From assembly GCA_045590535.1 (NCBI GenBank), contig JAZNRE010000005.1, positions 8,485 to 72,484 of the forward strand: a DNA stretch of 64,000 nt, written 5' to 3'. Each line of letters begins with the position of its first letter. Position 1 is the first letter of the stretch. The notes under the pieces were generated by a model. That model did not search any database. It was not told the origin of the DNA and worked only from the letters and a program-made list of their open reading frames with translations. The position numbers were made by a program, and so were the translations under genes. Positions 38,513 through 62,410 of this stretch are shown piece by piece. The DNA is from Clostridia bacterium. Lineage in GTDB: Bacteria; Bacillota; Clostridia; UBA1381; UBA9506.

Positions 38513-40591
38513 ATGTATAGAACCCTATATTGCAATGACATACGCGATGAGCACATTGGCAAAACCGTTCAGCTCGCCGGCTGGGTGGATGTTGTGCGTG
38601 ACCATGGCGGTGTTATTTTTATTGACCTTCGTGATTACACCGGCGTAACACAGGTAGTCATTCATAATGAAGAACTTGTGAAGGATGTAAACCGTGAAAC
38701 CGTCATCTCTGTCAGCGGTATTGTCAGCAAGCGTGACCCCGAAACCGTGAATGACAAAATTGAAACCGGCGCCGTGGAGCTGGTGGCTGACAGCCTTGAC
38801 ATTTTAGGCAAAAGCTTAAACAAGCTTCCTTTTGATGTCCGTGCTTCCCGCTCAAGCAAAGATGAGTTGCGCCTTAAATATCGCTATTTAGATTTGCGCA
38901 ATCCCAAAAACCACGATAATTTGGTAAAACGCTCACAGATTATCCGCCATTTGAGAAACAAGATGGAAGAAAAAGGCTTTTTGGATATGCAAACGCCTAT
39001 CTTAACAGCCTCTTCTCCGGAAGGTGCCAGAGACTTTTTGGTGCCCAGCCGTAAGCATCCCGGCAAGTTTTATGCACTGCCCCAGGCACCCCAGCAGTTT
39101 AAACAGCTTTTAATGGTGTCCGGCTTTGACCGTTATTTTCAGGTAGCGCCTTGCTTCCGTGATGAAGACGCCCGCGCTGACCGTTCACCCGGTGAGTTCT
39201 ATCAGTTAGACTTTGAAATGGCTTTTGCCACGCAAGAAGAAGTTTTGGATGTGTGCGAAGATGTAATCTACGACACCTTCAAAACCTTCTCGGATAAACG
39301 AATTACGCCGAAGCCCTTCCGTCGCATCACCTATGCGGATGCCATGATGACCTACGGCTCGGATAAACCCGATTTAAGAAACCCCTTAATCATCTGCGAT
39401 TTAACCGCCTTCTTTGAAGGGGTTGACTTCCCTGCCTTTAAGGGCAAGCCCGTCCGCGGTATTGTTGCTGGCTGTCAGGGCAAATCCAAGAAGTTCTTTG
39501 AAGATTCATTAAAATATGCCACCTCCCCCGAGGTTGGTCTTGGCGGTCTTGGATATATCACTTTAAAAGACGGCGCCTTTGCAGGCCCCATTGCCAAATT
39601 CTTAAGCGATGCACAAAAAGAAGAAATCACCACCCTGACCGGTGTGAAAGAGGGCGAAACCCTGTTCTTCATTTGCGACGACACCAAGAACGACACCGAG
39701 AAAAAAGCCGGCTTAATCCGTACCTGGCTGGCCAAAAAAGAACAGCTTGATTTAATTGATGAAGATGCTTTTGAATTCTGCTTCGTTGTGGACTTCCCCA
39801 TGTTTGAAAACGATGAGGAAACCGGTGAAACCATCTTCACTCATAACCCCTTCTCCATGCCCCAGGGCGGTATGGAAGCTTTGCTCACCAAAGACCCAAC
39901 CGAAGTGCTTGCATATCAGTATGACCTGGTAGGCAACGGCATTGAGCTTGCCTCCGGTGCTGTTCGTAACCACGATATTGACATTATGAAAAAGGCCTTT
40001 GAAATTGCAGGCTATCCTGAAGAGGAACTGAAAAAGCGGTTTAACGCTTTATACACTGCATTTCAGTATGGTGCTCCACCCCATGCCGGTATGGCGCCGG
40101 GCATTGACCGTATGGTAATGCTCTTAACTGACGAAGAAAAGATTTTAGATGTTATTGCTTTCCCCTTAAACGGCAACGCCCAGGACCTGCTTTTAGGCGC
40201 ACCCAGCTTTGTAACCAATCAGCAGCTTGAGGATGTTCACCTCTTAGGAAGCACCAATGTATTGGCGCAGCGTGCCGCCGGACCGGCCAGCGCAGCCAAA
40301 ACCTCGGCTGGCAAGCGTTCCACCTTCTCCAATGCACAGCAGCTGAATCAGATTGCTTTAACTGAAGAGGAAGAAAAGGTTGTGCAGGATATTTTTGGTG
40401 CCATGAATGAGCAGGAAAAAGCGCTGGACGAAATCAGCACCGAGGGTGTTGAACCCATGGTGCATGTCATGCCCATGACCAATGTTCTGCGTGAAGATGT
40501 CCGCCGTCAGCCTTTCTCCCGTGAGAGTCTCTTAGAGGGTGCTCCGGAACGCAGTGAAGATAGCTGGCAAGTGCCAAGACTTGTAAAGTGA
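38513..40591 (+). CDS. aspS: Aspartyl-tRNA synthetase (bacterial type, with GAD insertion) fused to a C-terminal GatC domain
   Basis: The AspRS core has QSPQ-equivalent LPQAPQQFKQLLM, FRDEDARADR, the GAD insert, and GIDRMVML. After a ~30-aa Ala/Ser/Lys-rich linker, the last ~85 aa (ALTEEEEKVVQDIF...GVEPMVHVMPMTNVLREDV...LLEGAPERSEDSWQVPRLV) match GatC end to end. No separate gatC lies upstream of gatA. Confidence 0.85.
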   Translation: MYRTLYCNDIRDEHIGKTVQLAGWVDVVRDHGGVIFIDLRDYTGVTQVVIHNEELVKDVNRETVISVSGIVSKRDPETVNDKIETGAVELVADSLDILGKSLNKLPFDVRASRSSKDELRLKYRYLDLRNPKNHDNLVKRSQIIRHLRNKMEEKGFLDMQTPILTASSPEGARDFLVPSRKHPGKFYALPQAPQQFKQLLMVSGFDRYFQVAPCFRDEDARADRSPGEFYQLDFEMAFATQEEVLDVCEDVIYDTFKTFSDKRITPKPFRRITYADAMMTYGSDKPDLRNPLIICDLTAFFEGVDFPAFKGKPVRGIVAGCQGKSKKFFEDSLKYATSPEVGLGGLGYITLKDGAFAGPIAKFLSDAQKEEITTLTGVKEGETLFFICDDTKNDTEKKAGLIRTWLAKKEQLDLIDEDAFEFCFVVDFPMFENDEETGETIFTHNPFSMPQGGMEALLTKDPTEVLAYQYDLVGNGIELASGAVRNHDIDIMKKAFEIAGYPEEELKKRFNALYTAFQYGAPPHAGMAPGIDRMVMLLTDEEKILDVIAFPLNGNAQDLLLGAPSFVTNQQLEDVHLLGSTNVLAQRAAGPASAAKTSAGKRSTFSNAQQLNQIALTEEEEKVVQDIFGAMNEQEKALDEISTEGVEPMVHVMPMTNVLREDVRRQPFSRESLLEGAPERSEDSWQVPRLVK

Positions 40592-40601
40592 GGTGCCAAG
40601 A

Positions 40602-41780
40602 ATGAATCATTATAAAACAAAAATCGGTAGCGGCAACATCGCCGTTGACGATACCATTTTAGTAAAAGATATTGAAGCTTGTGCCGGTTCTAAAATGCTC
40701 ACCGGCTTTAAGCCTCTCTTTAGTGCAGAAGCCGTAACCCGCCTGGAAGCCAAGGGCTACAAAATCGCCGGCAAAACCAATGTGGGCGAATTTGGCCTTG
40801 ACCTTTTGGGTGAGTTCTCCTATGGTGCAGAAAGCGAAGGCACATTAAAAGGTGCGGCTGCAGACCTGGTGGCAAGTGGCGAAGTGAAAGCGGCTTTGGC
40901 TGTGGATATGAACGGAACAGCAAGACGCGCGGCTGCCATCTCCGGTATTGACTTTTTAAAACCGACATATGGCACAGTTTCCCGCTATGGCGTCATTTCC
41001 TGTGCCGCTTCCGGTGAACAAATCGGCGTTTATGCTAAAGATGCCTCCGGTGTTCAGGAAATTATGAATGTGATCGCCGGTCACGACGAAAAAGACGGCA
41101 CCAGCTTAAAGAACGAAAGCTATGATTACAGTTTTCAGCCTGTTTCCGGCAAAAAAGTTGCCATTATAAAGGAACTTTTAGAAAAAGCTGATGACGAAAC
41201 CAAAAAACGCGTGAGTGTTTATGCTGATGCACTTCGTGCAAAAGGCGTAACGGTTGAAGAAATTTCCTTTAATCTCTTTGACGCCGCCAATGTTGCCTGG
41301 CAGATTTTAATGACCGCTGAAACCTGCAATAACATCTCCCGTTATGACGGCGTGAAGTTTGGTCATCGTGCTAAGGAATATAAAAACATTGACGAATTGT
41401 ATGTTAATTCCAGAACCGAAGGCTTTAACTTCTTAACCAAGGCGGTTATTCTGTATGGCTCTGATGTGCTTTCGAAAAACCGTTATGAAGCCTGCTATGA
41501 TAAATCCTTAAAGGTCCGCCGTGTGATTGCTGAAAAATTCCAAGAGTTAATGGCAAATTATGATGCGATTTTAACCCCGGCGGCAAGCAAAATCACTTAC
41601 GAAGCCTACGACATTCACGAAGCCTTCAAAAAGGTGTTTGAAGAAAGCGTTTTCACCGCACTGGCTAACTTAATCGGCACATCGGCTTTAGTTTCCGGCG
41701 GTGTGCAGCTTATGGGTAAGCATTTTTCAGAGAGTTTGTTATTAAGCCTTGCAGACGCTGCTAAAAAGGAGGGCAAATAA
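40602..41780 (+). CDS. gatA: GatA-like amidase-family protein, short and with a degenerate amidase signature
   Basis: It is colinear with GatA (ILVKD..., GKTNVGEF, LKPTYGTVSRYG, SRYDGVKFGHR, SRTEGFN). It lacks the canonical N-terminal segment of several tens of residues. It carries TLKGAAAD in place of GGSSGGS and AVDMNGTARR in place of GSDTGGSIRQ. Confidence 0.7.
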   Translation: MNHYKTKIGSGNIAVDDTILVKDIEACAGSKMLTGFKPLFSAEAVTRLEAKGYKIAGKTNVGEFGLDLLGEFSYGAESEGTLKGAAADLVASGEVKAALAVDMNGTARRAAAISGIDFLKPTYGTVSRYGVISCAASGEQIGVYAKDASGVQEIMNVIAGHDEKDGTSLKNESYDYSFQPVSGKKVAIIKELLEKADDETKKRVSVYADALRAKGVTVEEISFNLFDAANVAWQILMTAETCNNISRYDGVKFGHRAKEYKNIDELYVNSRTEGFNFLTKAVILYGSDVLSKNRYEACYDKSLKVRRVIAEKFQELMANYDAILTPAASKITYEAYDIHEAFKKVFEESVFTALANLIGTSALVSGGVQLMGKHFSESLLLSLADAAKKEGK

Positions 41781-41782
41781 TC

Positions 41783-43201
41783 ATGAATTATGAATTGGTC
41801 ATCGGCCTTGAGACCCATGTGGAGCTCAACACCGAATCAAAAATATTCTGTTCCTGCGGTGGTCACTCAGCCGCCAAAGAACCCAATGACTGTGTATGCC
41901 CTGCCTGCAGCGGCATGCCCGGTATGCTCCCTGTGATGAACAAACATGTTGTGGAGCTGGCTGTTACAGCAGGACTCATGTTAAACTGCGACATTAACCG
42001 TTACACCACCTTTGACAAAAAGAATTACTACTACCCTGACCTGCCCTGTGCTTATCAGATTACACAGCTCAACCATCCCATTTGCACCAACGGCTGTGTG
42101 ACCTTAAAAACCTCGGCCGGCACCCGTGACATCCGCATTAAGCAGATCCACATGGAAGAAGATGCAGGCAAATTGGTGCACGGCGGTAAATACTCTTATG
42201 TTGACTTTAACCGCACCAGCGTGCCCTTGATTGAAATTGTTACCCAGCCTGACTTTAGAAGTGCTGAAGAGGTGGTAACCTACTTAAACAAGCTGAAATC
42301 CATGTTCCGTTCCGGCGGTATTTCAGAATGTGAAGAGGGTGCTATGCGCTGCGATGTTAACATCTCCGTTCGTCCTGAAGACAGCGAAGAATTCGGTGTG
42401 CGTACCGAAATTAAAAACATGAGCTCCTTTGAAGCCATTGAAAAGGCCATCCGCTATGAAGCACAGCGCCATATGGACGCTTTGGAATTTGACACCGAAG
42501 AACTGGTGCAGGAAACCCGCCGTTTTGATGATGCCAGCGGCAAAACCTTTGCCATGCGTAACAAAGAAACCGAGGCGGATTACCGCTACTTCCCCGATGC
42601 TAACTTAATGCCCATCATCATTGATGACGAGTGGCTGGAGGAAATTAAGGCGAACAAACCTGCTGCTGTGGATGAAAAGGCTGAAGATTATCGCCTGGCA
42701 GGCATTTCGGATAAAGAAATCGACATGCTCATCTCCAACCACAAAATCAGCAAGCTACTCGATGATATTGTGGCTATGGGTGCTAATGCCAAAGATGGTG
42801 CTGCATGGATTTTAACCGACTGTGCCGGTATTTTGCGCAAAGATGGCAAAACCTTGAATGATTTAGTTATCACCGCTGAAAAGCTCTATGCTGTCATTCA
42901 AATGGTGGATAATGGCGACATCAACCGCAACGCCGGCAAAAAGATACTCATTGCTGTGGTTGAACAAGATGTTGACCCCATTGCTTATTGCAAAGAGCAG
43001 GGGCTTGACAAAAAGTTTGATACTTCTGCCATCAGCGCTGTGGTCGATAAGGCCATTGCCGAAAATCCCCAGTCTGTAGAGGACTTTAAAAATGGTAAGG
43101 TTAAGGCATTGCAAGCTCTCTTTGGTGCTTGTATGAAAGAATTAAAAGGCGCCGGCGACCCCGCCGTTATCAAAACCTTGTTGGAAGAGAAATTGAAGTA
43201 A
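41783..43201 (+). CDS. gatB: Asp-tRNA(Asn)/Glu-tRNA(Gln) amidotransferase subunit B
   Basis: ELVIGLETHVELNTESKIFC, DKKNYYYPDLP, MEEDAGK, DFNRTSVPLIEIV, and a C-terminal YqeY-like tail. Confidence 0.95.
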   Translation: MNYELVIGLETHVELNTESKIFCSCGGHSAAKEPNDCVCPACSGMPGMLPVMNKHVVELAVTAGLMLNCDINRYTTFDKKNYYYPDLPCAYQITQLNHPICTNGCVTLKTSAGTRDIRIKQIHMEEDAGKLVHGGKYSYVDFNRTSVPLIEIVTQPDFRSAEEVVTYLNKLKSMFRSGGISECEEGAMRCDVNISVRPEDSEEFGVRTEIKNMSSFEAIEKAIRYEAQRHMDALEFDTEELVQETRRFDDASGKTFAMRNKETEADYRYFPDANLMPIIIDDEWLEEIKANKPAAVDEKAEDYRLAGISDKEIDMLISNHKISKLLDDIVAMGANAKDGAAWILTDCAGILRKDGKTLNDLVITAEKLYAVIQMVDNGDINRNAGKKILIAVVEQDVDPIAYCKEQGLDKKFDTSAISAVVDKAIAENPQSVEDFKNGKVKALQALFGACMKELKGAGDPAVIKTLLEEKLK

Positions 43202-48039: not shown

Positions 48040-48891
48040 ATGGCTTATAACGAACTAGAGCAAAGAGGAACCTCTGATTTTCCTGTGGAATTTTTCCACA
48101 TTGATGAGCATCATCCCCGCTATCACATGTCTGCCCATTGGCACAGCGAAATTGAGCTGATTAAGGTGCTTGAGGGGCATCTGGAAATTAAGCTTAACAA
48201 CAATGAATATCTTGCAAAACCGGGTGATATTGTTTTTATTAATTCAGAAACGCTCCACCAGGCAATTCCTCATGCATGCACCTATGAATGCATTGTTTTT
48301 CACATTAACTTTTTGTATAATGACACTTTAAGCTGCCGCTATTTCATTGAAAGTATTTTAAGCGGCGAAAACATTGTGAATGAATTTAACCCCCTTGCAA
48401 ATGATGAATTTCATAAAGTGGCAGGTGACGTGTTTCACCATTTAAACAGCCATTCCTCAGGGTATAAATTCAGAACCATAGCCGCCTTTTATATGCTTTT
48501 AGGGGTGATTGCAGATGAGCACATGTATCATTCAACCGTGAGCGACAAAACCTTTGATGTGGACAAAAACATTGTTAAGCTTAAAAAAGTCCTTTCATTT
48601 ATGCGCGAGAACTACAATAAAAGCATCACCTTAGAAGACATGGCCAAAACGGCTGGCATTTCTTTTAAATATTTTGGCACCTTCTTTAAGAATATGACCC
48701 GAAAAACGCCGGTTGATTATCTCATTGAATACCGTATTGAAAAAGCCTCCCGAAAGCTTTTAAACACCGACATGAGCGTGACGGACATTGCCTATTCCTG
48801 CGGTTTTAATGACCTGAGCTACTTCATTAAAACCTTTAAAAGAATCAACAAAATTTCTCCGGGAAAATACAGAGAAAAACAGCCGGAATAA
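48040..48891 (+). CDS. AraC family transcriptional regulator (cupin sensor plus dual HTH)
   Basis: N-terminal cupin (HWHSEIELIKVLEG). The C-terminal HTH_18 region includes ITLEDMAKTAGISFKYF and VTDIAYSCGFNDLSYFIKTFKR. It is divergent from the sugar genes. Confidence 0.85.
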   Translation: MAYNELEQRGTSDFPVEFFHIDEHHPRYHMSAHWHSEIELIKVLEGHLEIKLNNNEYLAKPGDIVFINSETLHQAIPHACTYECIVFHINFLYNDTLSCRYFIESILSGENIVNEFNPLANDEFHKVAGDVFHHLNSHSSGYKFRTIAAFYMLLGVIADEHMYHSTVSDKTFDVDKNIVKLKKVLSFMRENYNKSITLEDMAKTAGISFKYFGTFFKNMTRKTPVDYLIEYRIEKASRKLLNTDMSVTDIAYSCGFNDLSYFIKTFKRINKISPGKYREKQPE

Positions 48892-53106: not shown

Positions 53107-53655
53107 ATGCACATGGCAAACGACACAAGGCCGATGATGACAGATGCAAACGAAGAAAGCTGGGGCGCTTATGATAACAACCATAACGCCACTGTTTATG
53201 ATTATTTAAACCCTAATTCATCAGGTGTTTATCCCCTCCCCGTTCCTGATTCAAGCTTTAGCAACAATCACGGAAATGGCGGCACATCTGCACAAAGTGG
53301 TTCAGGCAATTTTGGCCCTCAGGAATCAATGGAGGCCGTTGAAAATCCACAGAGCAACGAAGAGGTCTATCAGGGCTCCTTTGAGGCAGTTTTGGCCAAT
53401 AACTTAGGCTATTATGTAACTATTGATTTTTTAATCGGCACAACCGAACTCACTTCCCGTTCCGGCATTTTATACGCTGTCGGTAACAACTTTGTGACCC
53501 TGTATGAGCCGGACAGCAATCAATACATTGTTTGTGATTTATTCTCTGTTAAATTTGTTACCTTCTTCCGTTCTGACCCCAGAAACCGACCCATGTCATA
53601 TAATAATTACGGTTATAATCGGGGCCGTTCCGGCGGAATGGGACGCCGCTACTAA
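53107..53655 (+). CDS. gerQ: Spore coat protein GerQ-like
   Basis: A low-complexity N/S/G/Q-rich N-terminus is followed by LGYYVTIDFLIGTTE...GILYAVGNNFVTLYEPDSNQYIVCDLFSVKFVTFF, the GerQ/YwdL C-terminal pattern. It is adjacent to the cwlJ-like gene. Confidence 0.7.
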   Translation: MHMANDTRPMMTDANEESWGAYDNNHNATVYDYLNPNSSGVYPLPVPDSSFSNNHGNGGTSAQSGSGNFGPQESMEAVENPQSNEEVYQGSFEAVLANNLGYYVTIDFLIGTTELTSRSGILYAVGNNFVTLYEPDSNQYIVCDLFSVKFVTFFRSDPRNRPMSYNNYGYNRGRSGGMGRRY

Positions 53656-53670
53656 TACATAGACATAAAG

Positions 53671-53715
53671 AAAGAGGCCGTCTTGCTAAATGAATTTGCA
53701 AGACAGCCTCTTTTT
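53671..53715. terminator. Bidirectional intrinsic terminator (gerQ / PHP gene)
   Basis: AAAGAGGCCGTCTTGC-N10-GCAAGACAGCCTCTTT (one mismatch), followed by TTGTT. Confidence 0.7.
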
Positions 53716-53771
53716 GTTATTCACCAACGATTTTAATCAAAACTCGCTTCCTCTGTTTTCCGTCTAATTCA

Positions 53772-54500
53772 TCAAGGGGCAACGGGTGCTCTCCCAAGGG
53801 TTTTAATTAAGCAGTCTGCACTGCACTCTTCAAGTTCTAGCACGCTCTGTCCTTCATAAACATCCCACAAATAGTGGGCGTCTGAATCGGTTATCAATCG
53901 GTAAGACGAAAGCTCGGGCCAACGGGCAAGCACCTCTTTTTTGGTTGTGTTTTTCGAAATCTCTAAGGTGGTAAAGCCCAGTTCCTCCGGCACGGCACCT
54001 AAATTGGAAATAATGCTGTAGGCATCTTTATCCACATGAGCCGGCATAATCAAGCCGCCCAATGCCCGCACCCGGGGCGCTGCCTCATAAATGGAACAGC
54101 CGGAAGCCGTTGTGAGCAGCCTTTCTTCATAAGCGGTGATTTCGTCTTTTTCATTCATATAGGCCTGCTGCCCAAAAATTTCAGATCTGTTTTTTATGGG
54201 CATAGCAAAGGGCAATAGATATGCCTCAAAGGCCTCTGCCGCTTCAATGGTGGGAAACAAGCAAACAAAATGAGCTTCTTCTGCTGTTTCAAGTTCCATG
54301 CCCGGCACAACGCAAAGCCCCTGTTCTTTGGCACAAGCCATCACCGCACGGACATTGCCCACGGTGTTATGGTCCGTCACCGCAATCATTTGCAGGCCGT
54401 TTAAAAGAGCCATGTTCACAATGTTGTTAGGGGTCATATCCATATCCCCGCAGGGCGACAGGGCGGAATGAATATGAAAATCACAGCTATACTGCATCAA
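53772..54500 (-). CDS. PHP-domain phosphoesterase
   Basis: CDFHIHSALSPCG...IAVTDHNT...PAHVD...SDAH: the PHP metal-binding histidine/aspartate set. The start overlaps the upstream stop by 4 nt. Confidence 0.8.
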   Translation of the reverse strand: MMQYSCDFHIHSALSPCGDMDMTPNNIVNMALLNGLQMIAVTDHNTVGNVRAVMACAKEQGLCVVPGMELETAEEAHFVCLFPTIEAAEAFEAYLLPFAMPIKNRSEIFGQQAYMNEKDEITAYEERLLTTASGCSIYEAAPRVRALGGLIMPAHVDKDAYSIISNLGAVPEELGFTTLEISKNTTKKEVLARWPELSSYRLITDSDAHYLWDVYEGQSVLELEECSADCLIKTLGRAPVAP

Positions 54501-54832
54501 CTTTGCTGAAAAATGCGGCAGGCCGCTTCATAGGCCGAAAGTGCCGTTCCTAAAATGTTAATGCCCTGCTCCTGTGCCTTTATTTTTGTCGCCTCATCAA
54601 CGCTGCGACCGTCAACCAGCAAAATGCAGGCCGGATCGGTTAAAGCCGCCACAGCGGCAATGTTCACATTGCCCTGAATGGTGATCCACACCTGACCTTC
54701 TTCCACACGGCTCATGGCAAGGCTTAATAAATCACCAATGTAGCAACCGTCTATCTCTTTTTCCAGGTTGCCCTCTGTGATGATTTGCAAATCGTTTTTT
54801 TCAATAAATTCACGAACTGTCATGTTTCTCAC
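54497..54832 (-). CDS. DRTGG domain protein (second copy)
   Basis: 111 aa. CYIGDLLSLAMSRV...VWITIQGNVNIAAVAAL...ILLVDGRSVDEAT...GINILGT fits the DRTGG fold pattern. It has a 4-nt overlap at both ends. Confidence 0.75.
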   Translation of the reverse strand: MRNMTVREFIEKNDLQIITEGNLEKEIDGCYIGDLLSLAMSRVEEGQVWITIQGNVNIAAVAALTDPACILLVDGRSVDEATKIKAQEQGINILGTALSAYEAACRIFQQS

Positions 54833-56169
54833 CTTTCGTAATATTCCCGGTCATCCGTTTTAAATGAGCCGGGCATTTCTTCTTCTAGGGCAATCATTTG
54901 CCGTGCCAGTTCTCGCACCTTTTCACGCAGTTTATAAATGCAGTCGGTTTCGGTGGCAAAGCCACGGACAATATCTTCTGCCAGACTTTTGCAGCTGGGG
55001 GCCCCGCAGGAACCGCAATCCAGTTGCGGCAAATCTTCATAAATTTCCTGCATCCTTTCCATTTTCTGCATAGCCACGGTGATGTCATCATCCAAATTAA
55101 GCACATTGCGGTATGTAACCGGGTTATCCCATTTAAGCTCTTCGTTATCAATGGGAACCATCACGGGCTTCTGCCCTTTTTTCATAAGCTCATTGGCCAA
55201 TTTTTTAATCTTTGTTTTGGCCACAAAGGTGTTATCAACCGTGAGCGGACCACCTACACAGCCGCCTGTGCAGGCCAATGCCTCAATGAAGTCCACATCA
55301 ATCTTTTCATCATCTTCAATTTCTTCTAAAAGCCGCACAACATGATCAATGCCGTCCACGGCTACATACTTGTCGCTGTTTAAGGCACTTGCCTCGCCGC
55401 CGGAGGCCGCCCAGCGAACACCGGCAAAAGCGCAGGTGGATAATTCCTCCACCTTTTCAATTTTGCCCAAAATCGGCAGCAGCTTTAAATACACTTCTTT
55501 GACGGACAGCACACCGTCAACCAACGGCACAGAGCTGCCAAGGGGATTGCGCACTGCAGTGGCTTTTGCCGCACAGGGCGAAATGAAAAACACGCCGATT
55601 TCAGATGGTTTTAACCCCGTTTTGCGCACCGCTTCCTGCCGCGCTACCTTTGCCGCTGTTTCCATGGGGGAAATAAGGGGCAGCACATGGTTAATGAGAT
55701 TGGGGAAACGGACAGAAATCAGGCGCACAACTGTGGGACATGCCGAGTTAATAACCGGCCGCTTCAGCTTGCCCTCTTCAAGCAGTTGCTTGGTGTAGGC
55801 TGTGATGGCTTCGGTGGCCTTTGCCACCTCATAAACATCATCAAAGCCCAAATATTTAAGTCCTGTCAAAATTAGGTTAATATCTTTTAAATTGTTAAAC
55901 TGTCCATAGAGCGTTGGCGCCGGAATGGCCACCTTATAGCGATAGTTAAAAATGTCATCCAGACGCTCTGTAACTGCACTTTTTGCATGATAAGGGCAAA
56001 CACGGATGCACTCGCCACAGTCAATGCACCGTTCTTTAATGATTTTTGCCTTGCCGTCTCGCACACGAATTGCTTCTGTGGGGCAGCCCTTAATACAATT
56101 GATACAGCCTTTGCACTTATCTCTGTCCAGTCTGACCGAATGATAATACTGTCTTTCCGTATCGCTCAT
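54829..56169 (-). CDS. [FeFe]-hydrogenase-like protein: 2x[4Fe-4S] ferredoxin, H-cluster domain and C-terminal 4-Cys FeS domain
   Basis: CKGCINCIKGCP and CIDCGECIRVCP (ferredoxin). NSACP corresponds to L1 (TSCCP), ISPCAAK to L2 (MPCxxK), and EALACTGGCVGGP to L3 (ExMxCxxGCxxG). The C-terminal motif is LDCGSCGAPSCKS...C. Confidence 0.8.
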   Translation of the reverse strand: MSDTERQYYHSVRLDRDKCKGCINCIKGCPTEAIRVRDGKAKIIKERCIDCGECIRVCPYHAKSAVTERLDDIFNYRYKVAIPAPTLYGQFNNLKDINLILTGLKYLGFDDVYEVAKATEAITAYTKQLLEEGKLKRPVINSACPTVVRLISVRFPNLINHVLPLISPMETAAKVARQEAVRKTGLKPSEIGVFFISPCAAKATAVRNPLGSSVPLVDGVLSVKEVYLKLLPILGKIEKVEELSTCAFAGVRWAASGGEASALNSDKYVAVDGIDHVVRLLEEIEDDEKIDVDFIEALACTGGCVGGPLTVDNTFVAKTKIKKLANELMKKGQKPVMVPIDNEELKWDNPVTYRNVLNLDDDITVAMQKMERMQEIYEDLPQLDCGSCGAPSCKSLAEDIVRGFATETDCIYKLREKVRELARQMIALEEEMPGSFKTDDREYYER

Positions 56170-56193
56170 ACACAGCCTCCCTCTGCTGACTTT

Positions 56194-56622
56194 TTAGTTC
56201 AGCTTGATAATCATAGTTACGGTTGTTCCCTTACCCACCTGGGATTCGATGGTCATGGAATCGGAATATTTTTTCATGTTAGGTAGTCCCATGCCCGCAC
56301 CAAAGCCCAGCTCTCTTGCCTCGTCTGTTGCGGTGGAAAAACCTTCCTGCATGGCCTTGTCAATATCGGAAATGCCGGGGCCGTTATCGGTGAATACAAT
56401 GGTGATGGCATCCGACGAAATGGCAACATTGGCCTCGCCGCCCTTGCCGTGAATGATGGTGTTAATTTCACCTTCATACATAGAAATAGCTGCTTTTCGG
56501 ATGGCTTCAGGAGACACACCCAATTGCTTTAACACCTTTTTAATGTTACTTGAAGCCTGACCGGCTGTGGTGAAGTTGTTGCCGTCAATGGTGTAATGCA
56601 GATTGATTGTTTTTTCAGCCAT
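56194..56622 (-). CDS. HATPase_c-type ATP-binding protein (anti-sigma-factor/Ser-kinase-like)
   Basis: 142 aa. EGEINTIIHG (N-box-like), TDNGPGISD (G1) and GFGAGMGLPNM (G2), followed by GKGTTVTMI. The size and motifs resemble RsbW/SpoIIAB-type kinases. Confidence 0.75.
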   Translation of the reverse strand: MAEKTINLHYTIDGNNFTTAGQASSNIKKVLKQLGVSPEAIRKAAISMYEGEINTIIHGKGGEANVAISSDAITIVFTDNGPGISDIDKAMQEGFSTATDEARELGFGAGMGLPNMKKYSDSMTIESQVGKGTTVTMIIKLN

Positions 56623-56625
56623 ATG

Positions 56626-56973
56626 TTACTCCCCTCTGCCAACAAGACCATTTTTATACAGTTCTCCACAAGCAATGTATAAGGGGAATTCCGTTGTCAT
56701 AATGGTGATGCCCATATCCTCTGCCAGCTCTAAAACCGGTGCCTGCGGCACCTTGCCACGAACAAAAACAATGATTTTGATGTCCATCATTTCGCAGGTT
56801 CTAATAACTTGCGGATTCACAAGACCCGTTAAGAGCAACGCCTGATTTTTAACAAAGGCCAAAACATCGCTCATCAAATCGCTGCCGCAAGCAGACTGCA
56901 CTTCTAAATCCTCCCAAGGAGCTTTGGTTAAAACCTTTGCATGTAAAATTTCACTTACCTGTTTCAGTTTCAT
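56626..56973 (-). CDS. DRTGG domain protein (first copy)
   Basis: 115 aa. ACGSDLMSDVLAFVKNQALLLTGLVNPQVIRTCEMMDIKIIVFVRGKVP...LAEDMGITIM. Confidence 0.75.
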   Translation of the reverse strand: MKLKQVSEILHAKVLTKAPWEDLEVQSACGSDLMSDVLAFVKNQALLLTGLVNPQVIRTCEMMDIKIIVFVRGKVPQAPVLELAEDMGITIMTTEFPLYIACGELYKNGLVGRGE

Positions 56974-57047
56974 AACAATGTTCCTTTCTTAATCGCATTC
57001 GGAATTTCAAGTCACAACACACAGAAAACATTGGCTTCTGTGCCTTC

Positions 57048-57076
57048 ATTTTATCATGAATGGTTTTTTTCGTCAA
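57048..57076 (-). promoter_or_regulatory. Sigma-A type promoter of the DRTGG/hydrogenase-like operon (TTGACG-N17-TAAAAT)
   Basis: The reverse complement reads TTGACG aaaaaaaccattcatga TAAAAT, about 70 nt upstream of the 56973 start. Confidence 0.5.
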
Positions 57077-57077
57077 G

Positions 57078-57103
57078 AAAAACCGTTCCATAGGACATGG
57101 AAC
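57078..57103 (-). terminator. Probable addA terminator
   Basis: GTTCCAT-N5-ATGGAAC hairpin abutting the addA stop codon. On the minus strand it is followed by GGTTTTT. Confidence 0.45.
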
Positions 57104-60100
57104 TACAGCTCGATAAGGGTATCATAGTGGAAAAGATATAAATACCGGTGCACAACCTTTTGCCCAAACATTTTCTCGGCAGCCTCACGGTAGCAATCAA
57201 GCTGAATGCGGTAATGCTCTTTTAGTTCTTCCGGTGTTTTGCTGCGGTCGGTTTTATAATCAATAATGCTGATTCCCTCATCCTCAAACAAAACACAGTC
57301 CATCATGCCCTGCAGCATAATCGTTCCTTTTACACGGAAGAAGGGCTCTGCCTCTGTTTGAATACCAAACGAAACCTCCCGCAACACCTTTTTAGAGGCA
57401 GACAACCGCTGACCCAGCTCTGATTGCATGAAGGTGAGCACCTTATGAATCGGAATGCTCTCCGCTTCTTGTTGGGTTAAAATACCTCTCGAAAACAGGG
57501 TATCAATTTGCTTTTGAATCGCCTGGGGACTGTCACAATCATTAAATTGCAAATTCTCTAAGAAGGTGTGTAGAGCCGTACCCGCCTCGGCACCACTGAG
57601 CCTTCCGCTGCGTTCCATTAAAAAGACGGGTCTGGGATAAAGATAAACCGAATCGGCTTCTTCGCCACTGCTTTTTCGCTTTAACTCCGTAACCGTTAGT
57701 TTCGCCGGAAGCTGCCCCTCCTCTTGATAGGGATATCGATAATGCAGCATAGCCGGCAACGAACCCGCCTCTTTGGGCTCTTCTTCTTTTTGGGTTTCTG
57801 CTATGGGCTCTTCTTCTGTAAATAAAGAATCTCCCTCCAGCCACTTTATGCAAAAACGGCTATCATCCACAGACAGACGAAACCTTTCTGTTTCCGCTTT
57901 TTTTCGCAACAGTTCAGCATCGGGATGGGTGCAAAGGGCCATTAAAATCCAATCCAAATAGCACGCAGCCGTGGCGGTAAAGGCGCCGGAGACTCGCTCG
58001 CTTTCAGCACCCACAGCACATTTTTTTATTTTTCCTTCCAGGTTGCGGCCGGCCGCAAGCATAATGAGCTTTTCCCGGGCACGGGTCATGGCCACATAGA
58101 GAATGCGCATTTCTTCTGAAAGCGCCTCTTCTAACATGGCGTGGCGGACAATCTGCCGGGCACTGTTATCATAAACAAGCCCCAACTCTGTATCTATGTA
58201 TTTCGGTCCGTAACCCCAGTCGCTGTGAATGAGGACCTTTTCCGTTAAATCCTGCGTGTTAAATCCACGGGCCATGCCGGCTAAAATCACAACGGGGAAT
58301 TCAAGACCCTTACTTTTATGAATGCTCATCACACGGACGACATTTTGCTCTTCACCAATGGTGCGGCCACCGTCATAGTCGCCGCCCATGGATTGATATT
58401 CATCAATAAAGCGAATGAAATTATACAGTCCTTTTAAACCGGTTTTTTCAAAAGCTGCCGCCCGAGTATACAAAAGCCGCAGATTAAGCCGGCGCAAGGC
58501 TCCGCCGGAAAGGGTTGACTGCGCTTCATAAAATCCCGTTTCCATGTATAAATACCAAACCAGCTCGGCTGTATCTAAAATGCGGCTTTTTTCACGGTAT
58601 ATGCTCAAAGAGGACAAAAAGGACGCCAGTTTTTTGCCCAAAGCGTCTTGCTCTTCGGCCCGCAGGCACAAAGCATCAAACAAATCGGTTTTGCGGTTTG
58701 CCAGGCGAATTTCGGCCAGTTCATCCGTTGACAGGGCATAAAGCTGCGAACGCAAAACGGATAACAGGGGAATGTCCTGATGAGGATTATCAATAATTTT
58801 AAGTAGCGACATCATCACAGTTATCTCCTGGCTTTGCAAAAAGGAGCTGCCGGCATCGCTGTAGCAGGGAATGCCTCTATCAGACAGAGCCTTGCAAAAG
58901 ACCGCGGCTGTATTTTTGGTGGAGCGCATTAAAATGCAAATATCCCGATAGGTCAAGGGTCGCACGCCGTTTTTGCCCAGCACCTGATAGCCACTCTCTA
59001 TCAGTTCGGCAATGCGACCTGCTGCCATGATGGCCTCTGCCTCTACGGCTTCGGGCGGTTCTTCTTCATCAGACTGGCCGTTTAATTCGGCAAGCCACAA
59101 TTCCGTTTCAAAAGGCAAGTGATGTTCCATGGCAGGATACATTGCCCCGGGATAAAGCATTTCTTCTTCATTATATTCAATTTCGCCGGTCTCGGCAGAC
59201 ATCACCCGTTTAAAAATGAAATTGATGCCGTCTAACACCTCGCTGCGGCTACGAAAGTTTTGTGAAAGCAAAATTTTGCGTTTGGGTGCATCGGTCTTGT
59301 GACTGTAGGTTTCTTTTTTCTCCCGAAAGAGCTTGGGGTTGGTGTTACGGAAACGATAAATGCTTTGCTTCACATCGCCCACCAAAAAGAGACCACCCTC
59401 TTTTTTAATAGCGCCAAAGATTGCCTCTTGAAGAGCGCTTGTGTCCTGATATTCATCAATCAAAATTTCGTCATAGCTTTGCTGTTCTGCCAAAGCAACG
59501 GCTGTAGGCTGTCCGGATGCATCGACAAACAGTCGATAGCATCCATGCTCCAAATCGTTATAGTTCAGCAGGTTTTTCGCCGCCTTTTTTTCGTCAAACC
59601 GGTCCATGAGCCGTTTCACCAATTCAGAAAGGCAACGCATTAAAGGATGCAGCTTTAATAAAACCGCCTTTTGCTCCTCTTGAGGCAGGCAAAAAAGCTC
59701 TTCCCGTAATTTTTTCATGTCTGTATTTTTCACACCATCACGCATTTTGCGGAGGCTCTCCCGGTAGCGGGGCTGTGCATCTTTTGGGACACGGGGAATG
59801 GTATCAAAGGTGAAGGCCATCAGCTGCTGATAAAACAGCTCATAATCCTGAATGGAATACAGGCTTATAAAAGCCTCTCTTTCGGCATAGAGCAACTGGT
59901 AAAAAGCCTCACCTCCGTCATCGGCCTCGGCTAGCGAGAGCATGGTGGCATATTTTTCAACAATGCCCTGCACTCTTCTTTTACCAATGGCTAAAAGCTC
60001 TCCGGCATAGGGTGTTTGAGCAAAATCTTCTGCCAGTTCAAAGCGCTTTGCCGCTTCATCCAGCCATCCTTTGGGGTTCGGCAGGCTCATAGCAAAATCG

Positions 60101-60642
60101 TAAATATGATTCACCAATTTATAAAAAGGTTCCGGGTTTTTAATATGTAAATACGCCTCTGTTAAGCGAAGAAAATCCTCGGCATAGGCTTTATCGTCAT
60201 ACATGGCTTCCATAACCTCTTCTAAAGCAGCAAGGCGCATCAATTCATTTTCTGTGGGGTCAGCAATGCGAAAATTCGGATCAAGACCCAACGAGTCAAA
60301 ATTTGCCCGCAAAACCTTGTGACAATAAGCATGAATGGTGGTGATAGAGGCATTAGAAAGCAAGGCAAGCTGACGCAAAAGCAGTTGATTGTCCGGCTCT
60401 TGTTCCAGTTTTTTAGAAAGAGCCGCACCAATTCTCTGCCGCATTTCGGCCGCTGCTGCATTGGTAAAGGTTACCACAAGCAACCGGTCTAAATCCACCG
60501 GTTGCTCGCGGTCTGTTATTCTTTCGATAATGCGTTCCACCAGCACCGCCGTTTTACCGCTGCCAGCTGCCGCTGCAACTAGAATGTCGGCCCCGCGTGC
60601 ATCAATGGCCGCTTGTTGTGATTCTGTCCATTTTGTTCCCAT
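57103..60642 (-). CDS. addA: Helicase-exonuclease AddAB, subunit AddA
   Basis: UvrD-type motifs: AAAGSGKT, IDEYQDT, LSQNFRS, VMSIHKSKGLEFP and YVAMTRAREKL. The C-terminal PD-(D/E)xK nuclease motif is IIDYKTD. The ATG at 60642 lies 8 nt after AGGAG. Confidence 0.9.
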   Translation of the reverse strand: MGTKWTESQQAAIDARGADILVAAAAGSGKTAVLVERIIERITDREQPVDLDRLLVVTFTNAAAAEMRQRIGAALSKKLEQEPDNQLLLRQLALLSNASITTIHAYCHKVLRANFDSLGLDPNFRIADPTENELMRLAALEEVMEAMYDDKAYAEDFLRLTEAYLHIKNPEPFYKLVNHIYDFAMSLPNPKGWLDEAAKRFELAEDFAQTPYAGELLAIGKRRVQGIVEKYATMLSLAEADDGGEAFYQLLYAEREAFISLYSIQDYELFYQQLMAFTFDTIPRVPKDAQPRYRESLRKMRDGVKNTDMKKLREELFCLPQEEQKAVLLKLHPLMRCLSELVKRLMDRFDEKKAAKNLLNYNDLEHGCYRLFVDASGQPTAVALAEQQSYDEILIDEYQDTSALQEAIFGAIKKEGGLFLVGDVKQSIYRFRNTNPKLFREKKETYSHKTDAPKRKILLSQNFRSRSEVLDGINFIFKRVMSAETGEIEYNEEEMLYPGAMYPAMEHHLPFETELWLAELNGQSDEEEPPEAVEAEAIMAAGRIAELIESGYQVLGKNGVRPLTYRDICILMRSTKNTAAVFCKALSDRGIPCYSDAGSSFLQSQEITVMMSLLKIIDNPHQDIPLLSVLRSQLYALSTDELAEIRLANRKTDLFDALCLRAEEQDALGKKLASFLSSLSIYREKSRILDTAELVWYLYMETGFYEAQSTLSGGALRRLNLRLLYTRAAAFEKTGLKGLYNFIRFIDEYQSMGGDYDGGRTIGEEQNVVRVMSIHKSKGLEFPVVILAGMARGFNTQDLTEKVLIHSDWGYGPKYIDTELGLVYDNSARQIVRHAMLEEALSEEMRILYVAMTRAREKLIMLAAGRNLEGKIKKCAVGAESERVSGAFTATAACYLDWILMALCTHPDAELLRKKAETERFRLSVDDSRFCIKWLEGDSLFTEEEPIAETQKEEEPKEAGSLPAMLHYRYPYQEEGQLPAKLTVTELKRKSSGEEADSVYLYPRPVFLMERSGRLSGAEAGTALHTFLENLQFNDCDSPQAIQKQIDTLFSRGILTQQEAESIPIHKVLTFMQSELGQRLSASKKVLREVSFGIQTEAEPFFRVKGTIMLQGMMDCVLFEDEGISIIDYKTDRSKTPEELKEHYRIQLDCYREAAEKMFGQKVVHRYLYLFHYDTLIEL

Positions 60643-60731
60643 CTGTACCACTCCTAAAAGCCTGTCATTTCCCTCTTTAGCTTTAGTATAGCACAGATTT
60701 TTTTCACTTACAATCCTATTTTTTAAATTCC

Positions 60732-60911
60732 CTATCGGCCGGATCGGGGCTGAAAGGTTTTGCATTGCACGCTGCATTGCTGAACAGGATCGCAGCTTGT
60801 CACTTCAATGGATGCCGCCTCACAATTCATATGTCCGCCGTTATACATGCAGTTTGTAACAGAGCAGGAAACGCCGGGCAGCGGTTTGTCGGTTTTTTTA
60901 ACCATCGTCAT
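60732..60911 (-). CDS. DUF1540 domain protein (small Cys-rich protein of spore formers)
   Basis: VSCSVTNCMYNGGHMNCEAASIEVTSC matches the DUF1540 CxVxNCxYN...C pattern. The ATG lies 6 nt after AGGAGGG. Confidence 0.65.
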   Translation of the reverse strand: MTMVKKTDKPLPGVSCSVTNCMYNGGHMNCEAASIEVTSCDPVQQCSVQCKTFQPRSGR

Positions 60912-61037
60912 CACTTTCCCTCCTTTTTTACAGATGTCTTTATTTTTGGTCGCACCGTTATTTTTATACATTTTTGTTTAAAAACTGTTTTTTGTGGTAT
61001 ATGTATAAATATACTACGACTTAAGGTGGTGATTTGC

Positions 61038-61511
61038 TTGGGCGCAATCTTTGAAAATCCGTCCTTGCTGCTTTGGCTTATTTTAATGCTTGTTTTTATT
61101 GTGGTCGAGGCCACCTCGGCAGCACTTATTTCCATTTGGTTTGCCGCTGGCTCTTTAGCTGCTATGGTGATTGCAGCTTTGGGACTGCCTGTGTGGTTGC
61201 AGATTTTGGTATTTATTGCTGTTTCCGGCATTGTTTTGTTAATGGCCAAACCCTTAATCAGCCGTCACATTAACCAAAAGGCAGAAAAAACCAATGCCGA
61301 CCGTGTTATTGATGCTGTGGGGCTTGTAAAAACAGACATTAACCCAATTGCATCAGCAGGACAGGTGGAGGTTATGGGGCAGCTTTGGTCAGCCCGTTCT
61401 GTAAATCAATTGCCCATTCCGGCAGGGAGCCAGGTGCGTGTTGTCGCCATTGAAGGCGCAAAACTTTTGGTAGAGCCTCACGCCGAACAAATTAAGGAGG
61501 AAGAAGCATGA
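61038..61511 (+). CDS. NfeD family membrane protein
   Basis: Three TM helices are followed by a C-terminal OB-fold (GQVEVMGQLWSARS...GSQVRVVAIEGAKLLVEP). The TTG start follows AAGGTGGTGA. It is coupled by a 4-nt overlap to the SPFH gene. Confidence 0.8.
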   Translation: MGAIFENPSLLLWLILMLVFIVVEATSAALISIWFAAGSLAAMVIAALGLPVWLQILVFIAVSGIVLLMAKPLISRHINQKAEKTNADRVIDAVGLVKTDINPIASAGQVEVMGQLWSARSVNQLPIPAGSQVRVVAIEGAKLLVEPHAEQIKEEEA

Positions 61512-62410
61512 GTGGAGTCATTACTGTAATTTTTATTGTTTTAGCTTTATGGGTTGTTATGTCCAGCATTAAAATTGTACCCCAGGCCAGCGCCTATGTT
61601 GTGCAGCAGCTGGGCACATATAAAACAACCTGGCAAACCGGTGTGCATTTTAAAATTCCCTTTATTGAAAAAGTGGCCAAAATTGTTTCCTTAAAAGAGC
61701 AAGTGGTGGATTTTGACCCACAACCCGTGATAACAAAAGATAATGTTACCATGCAAATTGACACGGTTGTGTTTTTTCAAATAACCGACCCTAAGCTGTA
61801 TACCTATGGTGTGGAAAAACCCATGAGCGCCATTGAGAATTTAACAGCAACCACCTTGCGTAACATTATCGGTGAGTTGGAGCTTGACCAAACACTCACC
61901 TCCCGTGACACAGTGAATGCAAAAATGCGTGCCATTTTAGATGAGGCCACAGACCCCTGGGGCATTAAAGTGAACCGGGTTGAGCTGAAAAACATTTTGC
62001 CTCCCCGTGAAATTCAGGATTCAATGGAACGGCAGATGAAAGCCGAGCGTGAACGCCGTGAATCTATCTTACGCGCTGAAGGCGAAAAGAAATCGGCCAT
62101 TTTGGTGGCAGAAGGTGAAAAAGAAGCCGCCATTTTGCGGGCGATTGCAAAACGCGAAGCCCAAATTCAGGAGGCCGAAGGTGAAGCCCAGGCCATTATC
62201 AGCGTGCAAAAGGCCGTTGCCGAAGGCATTCGCATGTTAAACGAGGCCGGTGCCACAAAAGAAGTGATTGCCCTGCAAAGCCTGGAAGCTTTTAAAGAAG
62301 CGGCAAACGGCAAAGCCACAAAACTGATTATCCCCTCTGACATACAGGGCTTAGCCGGTCTGGCTGCCTCTTTAAAAGAGATTGTGGCCGATAAAGACCA
62401 AGAGGCATAA
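61508..62410 (+). CDS. SPFH/Band-7 (stomatin-like) protein
   Basis: An N-terminal TM helix, then IVPQASAYVVQQLGTY...TKDNVTMQIDTVVFFQI and a coiled-coil EAERE-rich tail. Confidence 0.9.
   Translation: MSGVITVIFIVLALWVVMSSIKIVPQASAYVVQQLGTYKTTWQTGVHFKIPFIEKVAKIVSLKEQVVDFDPQPVITKDNVTMQIDTVVFFQITDPKLYTYGVEKPMSAIENLTATTLRNIIGELELDQTLTSRDTVNAKMRAILDEATDPWGIKVNRVELKNILPPREIQDSMERQMKAERERRESILRAEGEKKSAILVAEGEKEAAILRAIAKREAQIQEAEGEAQAIISVQKAVAEGIRMLNEAGATKEVIALQSLEAFKEAANGKATKLIIPSDIQGLAGLAASLKEIVADKDQEA

Follow-up and report, generated by a model that had tools for sequence, protein, structure and literature searches.

A conserved five-gene module around a putatively sensory Group D [FeFe]-hydrogenase in Clostridia

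The 64-kb stretch of contig JAZNRE010000005.1 analysed here (hereafter the window) belongs to the metagenome-assembled genome (MAG) of an uncultured, spore-forming Clostridia bacterium, whose closest proteins are 85-87% identical. On its minus strand, five co-oriented and closely packed genes encode a small DRTGG protein (DRTGG1), an ATPase of the GHKL type, an [FeFe]-hydrogenase-like protein (HydS), a second DRTGG protein (DRTGG2) and a PHP-family phosphoesterase (Table 1). Our check of the open reading frames (ORFs) found these genes between 53772 and 56973, as a first-pass annotation of this DNA had placed them. We give a probability of roughly 0.55 to the explanation of the locus as a whole, in which a conserved module made as one transcript is built around a putatively sensory [FeFe]-hydrogenase of Group D (M2e) and works as proposed in the Discussion. 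The same five genes stand in the same order in 70 of the 82 sources surveyed, an arrangement that is far beyond chance, and the earlier proposal of a single, transcription-unit-like module is borne out by this conservation. The annotation had also set a hydrogenase-type protein at the core of the operon, and this protein proved to belong to a class that the literature calls putatively sensory.

Results

Conservation of the module and of its neighbourhood

The survey took one genome per species and yielded 80 loci, to which the window and a locus from Congzhengia were added to give the 82 sources. The 80 loci derive mostly from MAGs labelled Oscillospiraceae, Clostridia or Bacillota, and also from Thermoanaerobacteraceae, Harryflintia, Hydrogenoanaerobacterium and Caproiciproducens; the module is likewise present in Acetivibrio saccincola. 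Genetically tractable carriers include C. thermocellum (Cthe_0335 region), Caldicellulosiruptor bescii (Athe_1292 region) and Thermoanaerobacter. Seven of the 12 sources in which the order DRTGG1-ATPase-HydS-DRTGG2-PHP is incomplete are cut by contig ends, and the other five lack one or more of three genes (DRTGG1, DRTGG2 and an adjacent PHP gene). One of these five has its PHP gene about 2.4 kb upstream of the module instead. The profile searches returned at least 8000 candidates for module proteins in each of three runs, and no domain fusion linking the partners appeared among the best 120 of about 8000 matches for DRTGG1 or for the PHP protein. The sole non-Bacillota locus recovered, in an Oceanispirochaeta MAG (L074, 9552-11293), carries the ATPase and HydS genes alone, the DRTGG and PHP genes being absent despite some 10 kb of sequence on each side.

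The spacing of the genes is also characteristic. Across about 75 loci, the median junction is -4 nucleotides (nt) between DRTGG1 and the ATPase and -1 nt between DRTGG2 and PHP, with overlaps at most of these junctions, and short gaps separate the ATPase from HydS and HydS from DRTGG2. The overlaps point to two translationally coupled pairs that flank the sensor. For the window, the first-pass annotation had reported spacings of 3, 24, -4 and -4 nt, which do hold for the longest ORFs, but two of the start codons probably need correcting. DRTGG2 more likely begins at ATG 54823, given that M4 of the longer form is nearly invariant and that the family consensus opens with xMTV. The PHP gene more likely begins at ATG 54497, which gives the 241-amino-acid (aa) product found at NCBI. 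The first of these starts leaves a 5-nt gap after the HydS stop codon and the second a 1-nt overlap, so that the corrected gaps are 3, 24, 5 and -1 nt and the operon is still tightly packed.

Table 1. Positions of the module genes and of the signals around them, in order of transcription
Feature	Position	Strand	Details
Terminator-like hairpin and T-run of the upstream AddA-like gene	57085-57103	-	8-bp stem, then GGTTTTTCTT
Promoter-like site	57048-57076	-	-35 TTGACG (57076-57071), 17-nt spacer, TG-extended -10 TAAAAT (57053-57048)
DRTGG protein 1 (DRTGG1)	56626-56973	-	115 aa
SpoIIAB/RsbW-like single-domain GHKL ATPase	56194-56622	-	142 aa
HydS, Group D (M2e) [FeFe]-hydrogenase-like protein	54829-56169	-	446 aa
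DRTGG protein 2 (DRTGG2)	54497-54832	-	111 aa from GTG 54832; more likely 108 aa from ATG 54823
PHP-family metal-dependent phosphoesterase	53772-54500	-	242 aa from TTG 54500; more likely 241 aa from ATG 54497
Intrinsic terminator of the module	53665-53713	-	14-16 bp G+C-rich hairpin (53713-53671), then TTCTTTAT
Rex-operator loci among relatives			L010, L016, L027, L047 and four more

Clustering of all the genes around the module revealed only five other recurrent families: NuoE-like proteins (45 loci), a 183-aa GHKL protein (41), a 2Fe-2S ferredoxin (36), NuoF-like proteins (35) and a HydA of Group A, M3 type. Together these make up a bifurcating HydABC-type operon, which is the module's only recurrent neighbour. 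When the neighbourhood count, taken directly from the profile hits, is confined to complete loci with at least 7 kb of sequence on both sides (n = 31), 20 adjoin such an operon, which agrees with the first-pass statement that related modules usually lie beside bifurcating hydrogenase operons, and 11 stand alone. HydA lies downstream on the same strand in 14 of the 20 linked loci and upstream in five; the remaining one (L073) was counted as linked on the NuoE and NuoF genes downstream of it. No transcription factor, sigma factor, PP2C protein, receiver or maturase (hydEFG) was found among the recurrent neighbour families of the 82 sources.

The window and Congzhengia are among the stand-alone loci, and in Acetivibrio saccincola no hydrogenase gene was found within 10 kb of the module. 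Searches of the 64-kb window with phmmer gave no second Fe-hydrogenase homologue, and family searches gave no member of the NuoE or NuoF families. The radical-SAM motif CxxxCxxC is missing from window ORFs of at least 250 aa, and no maturase gene was found in the window. The first-pass annotation was therefore right that no catalytic hydrogenase, NuoE/F or maturase gene lies in the window. It had gone on to treat the target of the module as open for want of a nearby hydrogenase; the description is correct, but the situation is not an unusual one, as about a third of the well-flanked loci stand alone.

Two further features of the neighbourhoods deserve description. The 183-aa GHKL protein (for example, L032:13095-13646 and L064:12975-13514) is encoded between the NuoE-like and 2Fe-2S ferredoxin genes, carries the motifs LDIAQNS, DNGCGM and TTRKVGLGIP as well as a C-terminal extension of about 80 aa, and is only distantly related to the ATPase of the module (hhalign 96.7%). 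It is a candidate receiver of the signal and is absent from the window. Just upstream of the module in four closely related loci (L001, L007, L009 and L018, from Congzhengia and one Clostridia MAG) lies a conserved block of genes for rubrerythrin, a Fur-family regulator, a ParA/Mrp-like ATPase and a PHP protein of the CpsB_CapC type, which may reflect lineage synteny only.

HydS as a Group D hydrogenase

HydS is almost certainly orthologous to TamHydS of Thermoanaerobacter mathranii, the characterised member of the Group D (M2e) [FeFe]-hydrogenases, as judged from its domains, H-cluster ligands, substitutions, C-terminal cluster, lack of a PAS domain and overall relatedness. Pfam identifies Fe_hyd_lg_C (113.9 bits) and PF04060 FeS (44.2 bits). 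The N-terminus contains two ferredoxin-type 4Fe-4S motifs of the form CxxCxxCxxxC (C19-C29 and C48-C58), which are invariant in the family alignment. The H-cluster ligands C144, C199, C300 and C304 align with their counterparts in the Desulfovibrio enzyme, all 15 relatives compared share them, and K202 is invariant across the family alignment. Beyond the H-domain, the C-terminal cluster site has the arrangement C385-x2-C388-x4-C393-x16-C410, with about 36 residues after the last Cys. D384, E398 and D399 are invariant in the alignment, and, if an offset of six residues is assumed, they appear to be the counterparts of the 100%-conserved Group D residues D378, E392 and D393 (PMC13104023). Neither Pfam nor NCBIfam matches a PAS domain in HydS. 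A comparison by tblastn over residues 8-433 gives 46-50% identity with TamHydS, whose coding sequence, from the supplement of PMC13104023, carries frameshifts from the machine-read PDF into this comparison. No structure of the Group D (M2e) class has been solved.

The H-domain motifs of HydS are NSACP, SPCAAK and ACTGGCVGGP. Relative to the Desulfovibrio enzyme, TSCCP has become NSACP, the MPC of MPCIAK has become the SPC of SPCAAK, and EYMAC has become EALAC. These changes are the Group D substitutions C299A, M353S and M497L (CpI numbering), by which the proton-relay Cys and both Met residues that frame the diiron site are replaced. HydS is thus predicted to have an intact H-cluster site and to lack the residues through which protons are rapidly transferred in Group A enzymes. 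The M2e subclass typified by TamHydS has been described in the same terms, with Leu and Ser at the two Met positions, a C299 that is not conserved, and no PAS domain (PMC8163306).

The class has been labelled putatively sensory (PMC8163306, PMC13104023, PMC3561251), and it has also been termed 'functionally undefined' (PMC3561251, PMC11216029). TamHydS evolves and oxidises H2 in vitro, has a raised affinity for H2, tolerates CO and undergoes a change in secondary structure that is induced by H2 (PMC8163306, PMC13104023). Its ferredoxin-type clusters are indispensable (PMC13104023). Its C-terminal cluster is not reduced under 1 atm H2 (PMC8163306, PMC13104023), and for this reason the redox state of that cluster is unlikely to carry the signal. 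Interaction partners of TamHydS were stated as still to be identified (PMC8163306, PMC13104023). We consider that HydS probably has a sensory role.

The four partner proteins

The domains that the first-pass annotation had guessed for these proteins are those given by the Pfam and NCBIfam profile searches. The ATPase matches HATPase_c (49.1 bits) and HATPase_c_2 (39.6 bits), and its best NCBIfam match is the anti-sigma F factor SpoIIAB (TIGR01925), at 64.7 bits against an equivalog cutoff of 135. Its nucleotide-binding boxes are invariant in 39 homologues: the N-box E50/N54/H58, the G1 box D79-x-G81-x-G83 and the G2 box G106-FGAGMGL. The nearest solved relatives in the PDB are SpoIIAB (E 4e-12) and RsbW (E 1.4e-4), and this closeness makes kinase activity plausible. 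The protein consists of the catalytic ATP-binding domain only and, because it is without a DHp or HisKA domain, it is not a histidine kinase.

Both DRTGG proteins score below the Pfam gathering threshold for PF07085 (20.8 and 21.1 bits against 25.2), and several other comparisons nevertheless confirm the predicted DRTGG fold. The two are full-length paralogues of each other (hhalign 99.2%, E 2.7e-19), homologues of them carry precomputed PF07085 matches and in some cases also Hpr_kinase_N, and the profile matches the DRTGG domain of CBS-pyrophosphatase (E 5e-4). An AlphaFold model of DRTGG1, with a predicted local distance difference test score (pLDDT) of 84.8, superposes in Foldseek on the DRTGG protein AF1212 with a template modelling (TM) score of 0.81; the model also matches the DRTGG insert of CBS-pyrophosphatase and, more weakly, the N-domain of HprK/P, and the MurE-N fold was returned too. 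A STAS-like fold was considered for these proteins and was ruled out by this search, which gave only DRTGG, HprK-N and MurE-N folds for DRTGG1; Pfam and NCBIfam gave no STAS match for any of the five proteins.

Conservation is uneven between the paralogues, with a mean column identity of 62% for DRTGG1 against 46% for DRTGG2. Residues D32, S35, D36, G50, Q55, R58, T59 and R72-G73-K74 of DRTGG1 are invariant and T49 is nearly so. In the AlphaFold model the conserved residues follow the strands of the alpha/beta fold, where they may form a phosphate-binding crevice. Of these residues, DRTGG2 keeps only the counterparts of D32, S35 and T49, at D34, S37 and T51, and the basic R/R-G-K residues are gone. 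Each paralogue has kept a Ser, invariant and set in a D-L-x-S loop, together with one Thr.

The PHP protein has only a generic PHP domain match in Pfam (34.3 bits). Judged over 39-45 homologues and in the numbering of the 241-aa form, its invariant residues are H8-x-H10, S14-P15-C16, D42-H43, E68, H76, H154 and D206-x-H208. We take the His, Asp and Glu residues among them to be the complete set of metal ligands, as expected for the PHP family, and the S-P-C motif is a feature specific to this family of module proteins. The nearest relatives by sequence and by fold (AlphaFold model, pLDDT 94.9) are the lesion-specific nuclease EndoQ (TM 0.72), RNase AM, the phosphoesterases BAD_1165 and Cv1693, TM0559 and the PHP domains of replicative polymerases. 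Cv1693 has been solved with bound AMP, histidinol phosphatases rank far below these relatives, and one source names the family 'PHP family Zn ribbon phosphoesterase'. Some PHP enzymes, CpsB and YwqE, are protein phosphatases. We considered this type of activity for the module protein and found it unsupported, since the relatives are of the EndoQ and RNase AM type, no CpsB/YwqE-type phosphatase is present among the 50 fold matches listed, and the protein has no membership of CpsB_CapC. A separate CpsB_CapC gene does precede the module in Congzhengia, but in no other genus. The first-pass reading of this protein as phosphatase-like thus found no support: it resembles phosphoesterases of nucleic acids and nucleotides. 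This kinship raises the possibility that the mark or ligand in question is a nucleotide instead of a phosphoprotein.

These assignments bear directly on whether the module is a classical partner-switching system, in which a GHKL kinase of the anti-sigma type would phosphorylate a DRTGG antagonist, the PHP protein would serve as the phosphatase, and a sigma factor or other regulator would be released. The kinship and similar size of the ATPase to SpoIIAB and RsbW, the conserved Ser and Thr of the DRTGG paralogues and the existence of PHP protein phosphatases would all suit such a scheme, and Group C sensory hydrogenases are reported beside phosphatase-type genes (HydDB class C3). However, the DRTGG1 model has no STAS match, no PP2C protein or sigma factor is kept with the module in the 82 sources, and the PHP protein is of the EndoQ/RNase AM kind. 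Moreover, the sigE gene about 3 kb from the module is part of the spoIIGA sporulation cluster and is not a recurrent neighbour. We therefore regard classical partner switching as unlikely. The first-pass proposal of a partner-switching or phospho-relay circuit likewise lost its footing, as the module contains no STAS, PP2C, sigma factor, HisKA/DHp or receiver. What could be retained from it is a kinase/phosphatase pair that may act on the DRTGG proteins, and the sensory hydrogenase module that we favour may work like a partner-switching circuit, yet it is not a member of that family.

Signals for expression

The AddA-like gene upstream of the module ends in a hairpin that sets it apart from the module (Table 1). 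The site named as a promoter by the first-pass annotation is present, about 75 nt ahead of the first ATG, and matches at 10 of 12 positions, but such sites are no commoner in the region than in shuffled sequences (7 against 6.9). Because this count equals chance, the site is made credible by its position alone, between the AddA hairpin and the first start codon. The terminator that had been placed 3' of the operon was confirmed as a strong hairpin followed by a U-tract (z -3.85 for the 121-nt region). A consensus terminator scan overlooked it on account of its 11-nt loop, and it is probably bidirectional, since a convergent gene on the plus strand ends at 53655. A search with Rfam for riboswitches or leader RNAs gave no RNA family at gathering score anywhere in the 64-kb window, and the sole match within 53500-57300, to mir-19, is a chance similarity of the terminator hairpin.

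Operators for the regulator Rex (TTGTTAAnnnnTTAACAA) were sought within 300 nt upstream of the first DRTGG gene. With up to two mismatches allowed, 8 of the 74 relatives have one, where shuffled sequences would lead one to expect 0.4, and four copies are perfect. Judged by these sites, the module seems to be under NADH/NAD+ control in some species. The window has no Rex operator in this region, its best match having six mismatches.

The possibility must be weighed here that the redox state of ferredoxin or NAD(H), and not H2, is what HydS senses, with the N-terminal clusters taking electrons from the ferredoxin pool and the H-domain acting only as an electron sink. The operators provide a link to NADH/NAD+, and the two ferredoxin-type clusters are invariant as well as indispensable in TamHydS. 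However, the four H-cluster ligands and K202 are also invariant, and such conservation would be difficult to account for if H2 chemistry played no part. TamHydS also reacts with H2 and has a raised affinity for it (PMC8163306), and there is no Rex box in the window itself. We find redox sensing of this kind improbable and favour H2 as the probable signal of the module.

Other genes of the window

The flanks of the module are unrelated to hydrogen and comprise an AddA-like helicase-nuclease, an NfeD/SPFH pair, an amino-acid permease, a SleB-type hydrolase and two RimK-like ATP-grasp genes. The window also holds spoIIGA and a probable sigE, a fucose-utilisation group with an AraC regulator, aspS-gatCAB, dxr, murein genes and peptidases, and Pfam scans of 30 further window ORFs gave housekeeping and sporulation genes only. 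The AraC regulator (48040-48891) was considered as a partner and set aside, as it lies beside the fucose isomerase gene and AraC homologues occur in only five distinct sources (the window and four loci).

Several of these genes are worth recording in their own right. The AddA-type gene (57103-60777, minus strand, 1224 aa) has no adjoining AddB gene, and its start is overlapped on the opposite strand by the NfeD/SPFH pair (60765-62410, plus strand). Convergent with the module is a 182-aa ORF (53107-53655, plus strand) without a Pfam match, whose first half is rich in Asn, Gln, Gly and Ser and whose second half looks conserved; because it adjoins the SleB-type cell wall hydrolase gene, it may encode a spore protein. 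Within 38513-43201 (plus strand), the product of a 692-aa ORF has the anticodon OB, catalytic and GAD domains of a class II aspartyl-tRNA synthetase and ends in a GatC domain (residues 616-686); the ORF is directly followed by an amidase/GatA gene (40593-41780) and then gatB (41783-43201). This arrangement has the appearance of an AspRS-GatC fusion, which would amount to a hard-wired transamidosome. A 542-aa ORF (8346-9974, minus strand) begins with an XRE-type HTH_3 domain (residues 10-63) and continues in frame into all four domains of a phosphoglucomutase/phosphomannomutase, and this may be a real fusion or an artefact of a far-upstream TTG start. Finally, directly downstream of a Mur-ligase-like gene, three overlapping genes in tandem (10296-13319, minus strand) encode paralogous M42 glutamyl aminopeptidases of 329, 345 and 347 aa.

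Discussion

Given the conservation of this gene set, it seems appropriate to consider how the five proteins might work together. We propose that HydS would bind H2 and turn it over slowly, as TamHydS does in vitro, and would report H2 pressure as a conformational change instead of through reduction of its C-terminal cluster. This change would be read by a complex in which the two coupled pairs come together, DRTGG1 being paired with the GHKL ATPase or kinase and DRTGG2 with the PHP protein. The DRTGG paralogues would probably heterodimerise, with DRTGG1 offering a conserved basic pocket suited to phosphate and DRTGG2 representing a degenerate copy, and the heterodimer would serve as substrate or adaptor. 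The ATPase would write, and the PHP protein erase, a phosphoryl or nucleotide-linked mark, for which the Ser and Thr residues conserved in both paralogues (S35/S37 and T49/T51) would be the best candidates. The output would be control of hydrogen and redox metabolism, most likely of a HydABC-type hydrogenase encoded elsewhere in the genome, or of its expression. We put forward the write/erase step only tentatively.

Several considerations weigh against this interpretation. The signalling path of Group D systems is without any demonstrated step, and TamHydS has measurable catalytic activity. None of the five module proteins is predicted to bind DNA or to be a sigma factor, a receiver, or a protein of the STAS or PP2C type. 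The closest relatives of the PHP protein cleave nucleic acids or nucleotides, not phosphoproteins, and the ATPase falls so far under the SpoIIAB equivalog cutoff that it could be an ATP switch that is not a kinase.

A bolder version of the proposal, which we consider doubtful, is that the coupled pairs are a new signalling device. Binding of H2 would be converted to a covalent or nucleotide-linked mark on the DRTGG heterodimer, without STAS/PP2C or His-Asp parts, and the device would act post-translationally on bifurcating hydrogenases or on central redox metabolism. If true, this undescribed device would account for a module that does without a DNA-binding protein and can function with or without an adjacent HydABC operon.

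That HydS is instead a metabolic hydrogenase that works slowly, such as an H2 valve linked to ferredoxin, with the four small genes as helpers for assembly, stability or repair, is most unlikely. TamHydS does evolve and oxidise H2 in vitro (PMC8163306, PMC13104023) and 11 of the 31 well-flanked loci have no nearby hydrogenase to regulate. However, substitutions have removed the proton-transfer Cys and both Met around the active site, the partners come from families of ATP switches and phosphoesterases and from no known maturation family, and hydEFG does not travel with the module.

The locus in the window is an ordinary member of its family and adds no new mechanism, its stand-alone state being common. 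The value of the survey lies in defining a conserved partner set for the Group D sensory hydrogenase, by which the standing question of what HydS interacts with becomes more directly testable. We found no paper in the searchable literature that describes the DRTGG, PHP and hydrogenase partner set together, and searches with other terms gave catalogue-type mentions only. The locus and 70 syntenic relatives name four candidate partners of a Group D hydrogenase, and the alignments add candidate residues: S35 and T49 of DRTGG1, S37 and T51 of DRTGG2, the basic pocket R58, R72 and K74 of DRTGG1, E50 and N54 of the ATPase, and the metal site of the PHP protein. The stand-alone copies show that the module is more than an adjunct to the HydABC operon. 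Many Clostridia of the gut, the rumen and fermenters carry Group D hydrogenases, which are suspected to set the response of these organisms to hydrogen pressure; that pressure governs fermentation balance, cross-feeding with methanogens and acetogens, and biofuel yields.

Comparison with known systems

A two-component arrangement does not fit what we find, since the ATPase has no HisKA/DHp domain and there is no receiver in the module or among its recurrent neighbours. HPr kinase/phosphorylase and the CBS-pyrophosphatase insert join a DRTGG-type domain to a kinase/phosphorylase or nucleotide-sensing unit, and both are matched by the DRTGG1 model and profile. However, they employ a P-loop kinase or a DHH pyrophosphatase, whereas the DRTGG domains of the module are two free-standing paralogues of about 110 aa that are encoded with GHKL and PHP proteins.

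The SpoIIAB-SpoIIAA-SpoIIE and RsbW-RsbV-RsbU systems share with the module a small GHKL protein with N, G1 and G2 boxes, a possible reversing hydrolase and small partners with a conserved Ser. These systems have STAS, PP2C and sigma factor components, whereas the module has none and its candidate hydrolase is of the PHP family. The HoxBC-HoxJ-HoxA [NiFe] H2 sensor of Ralstonia/Cupriavidus offers a functional analogy, drawn in PMC8163306, as a slow hydrogenase of high affinity that controls expression of energy-converting hydrogenases. Its metal site and protein family are unrelated, and it signals through a PAS histidine kinase and a response regulator, both of which are absent from the module.

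Group C (M2f) proteins, such as TmHydS, HydS of R. albus and HfsB of Thermoanaerobacterium, resemble HydS in having an H-domain without the proton-relay Cys, Fe-S clusters at both termini, linkage to phosphatase-type genes and other hydrogenases, and a proposed regulatory role. However, Group C proteins carry PAS domains and are linked to phosphatases (HydDB class C3; HfsC is homologous with serine phosphatases), whereas HydS has no PAS domain and is linked to DRTGG and PHP genes.

The closest counterpart is TamHydS, with which HydS shares domain order, length class, about 50% identity, the active-site replacements of Cys by Ala, Met by Ser and Met by Leu, the Cx2Cx4Cx16C C-terminal cluster with its conserved acidic residues, the lack of a PAS domain, and a gene for a histidine-kinase-like ATPase alongside. 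The TamHydS papers name as neighbours only this ATPase and an AraC regulator (PMC8163306, PMC13104023), whereas the conserved partners found here include two DRTGG genes and a PHP gene, and AraC is not recurrent. TamHydS is encoded upstream of a bifurcating HydABC, whereas HydS of the window has no other hydrogenase within the 64 kb. The Thermoanaerobacteraceae locus of our survey (L064) has the same five genes as the window, followed by HydABC.

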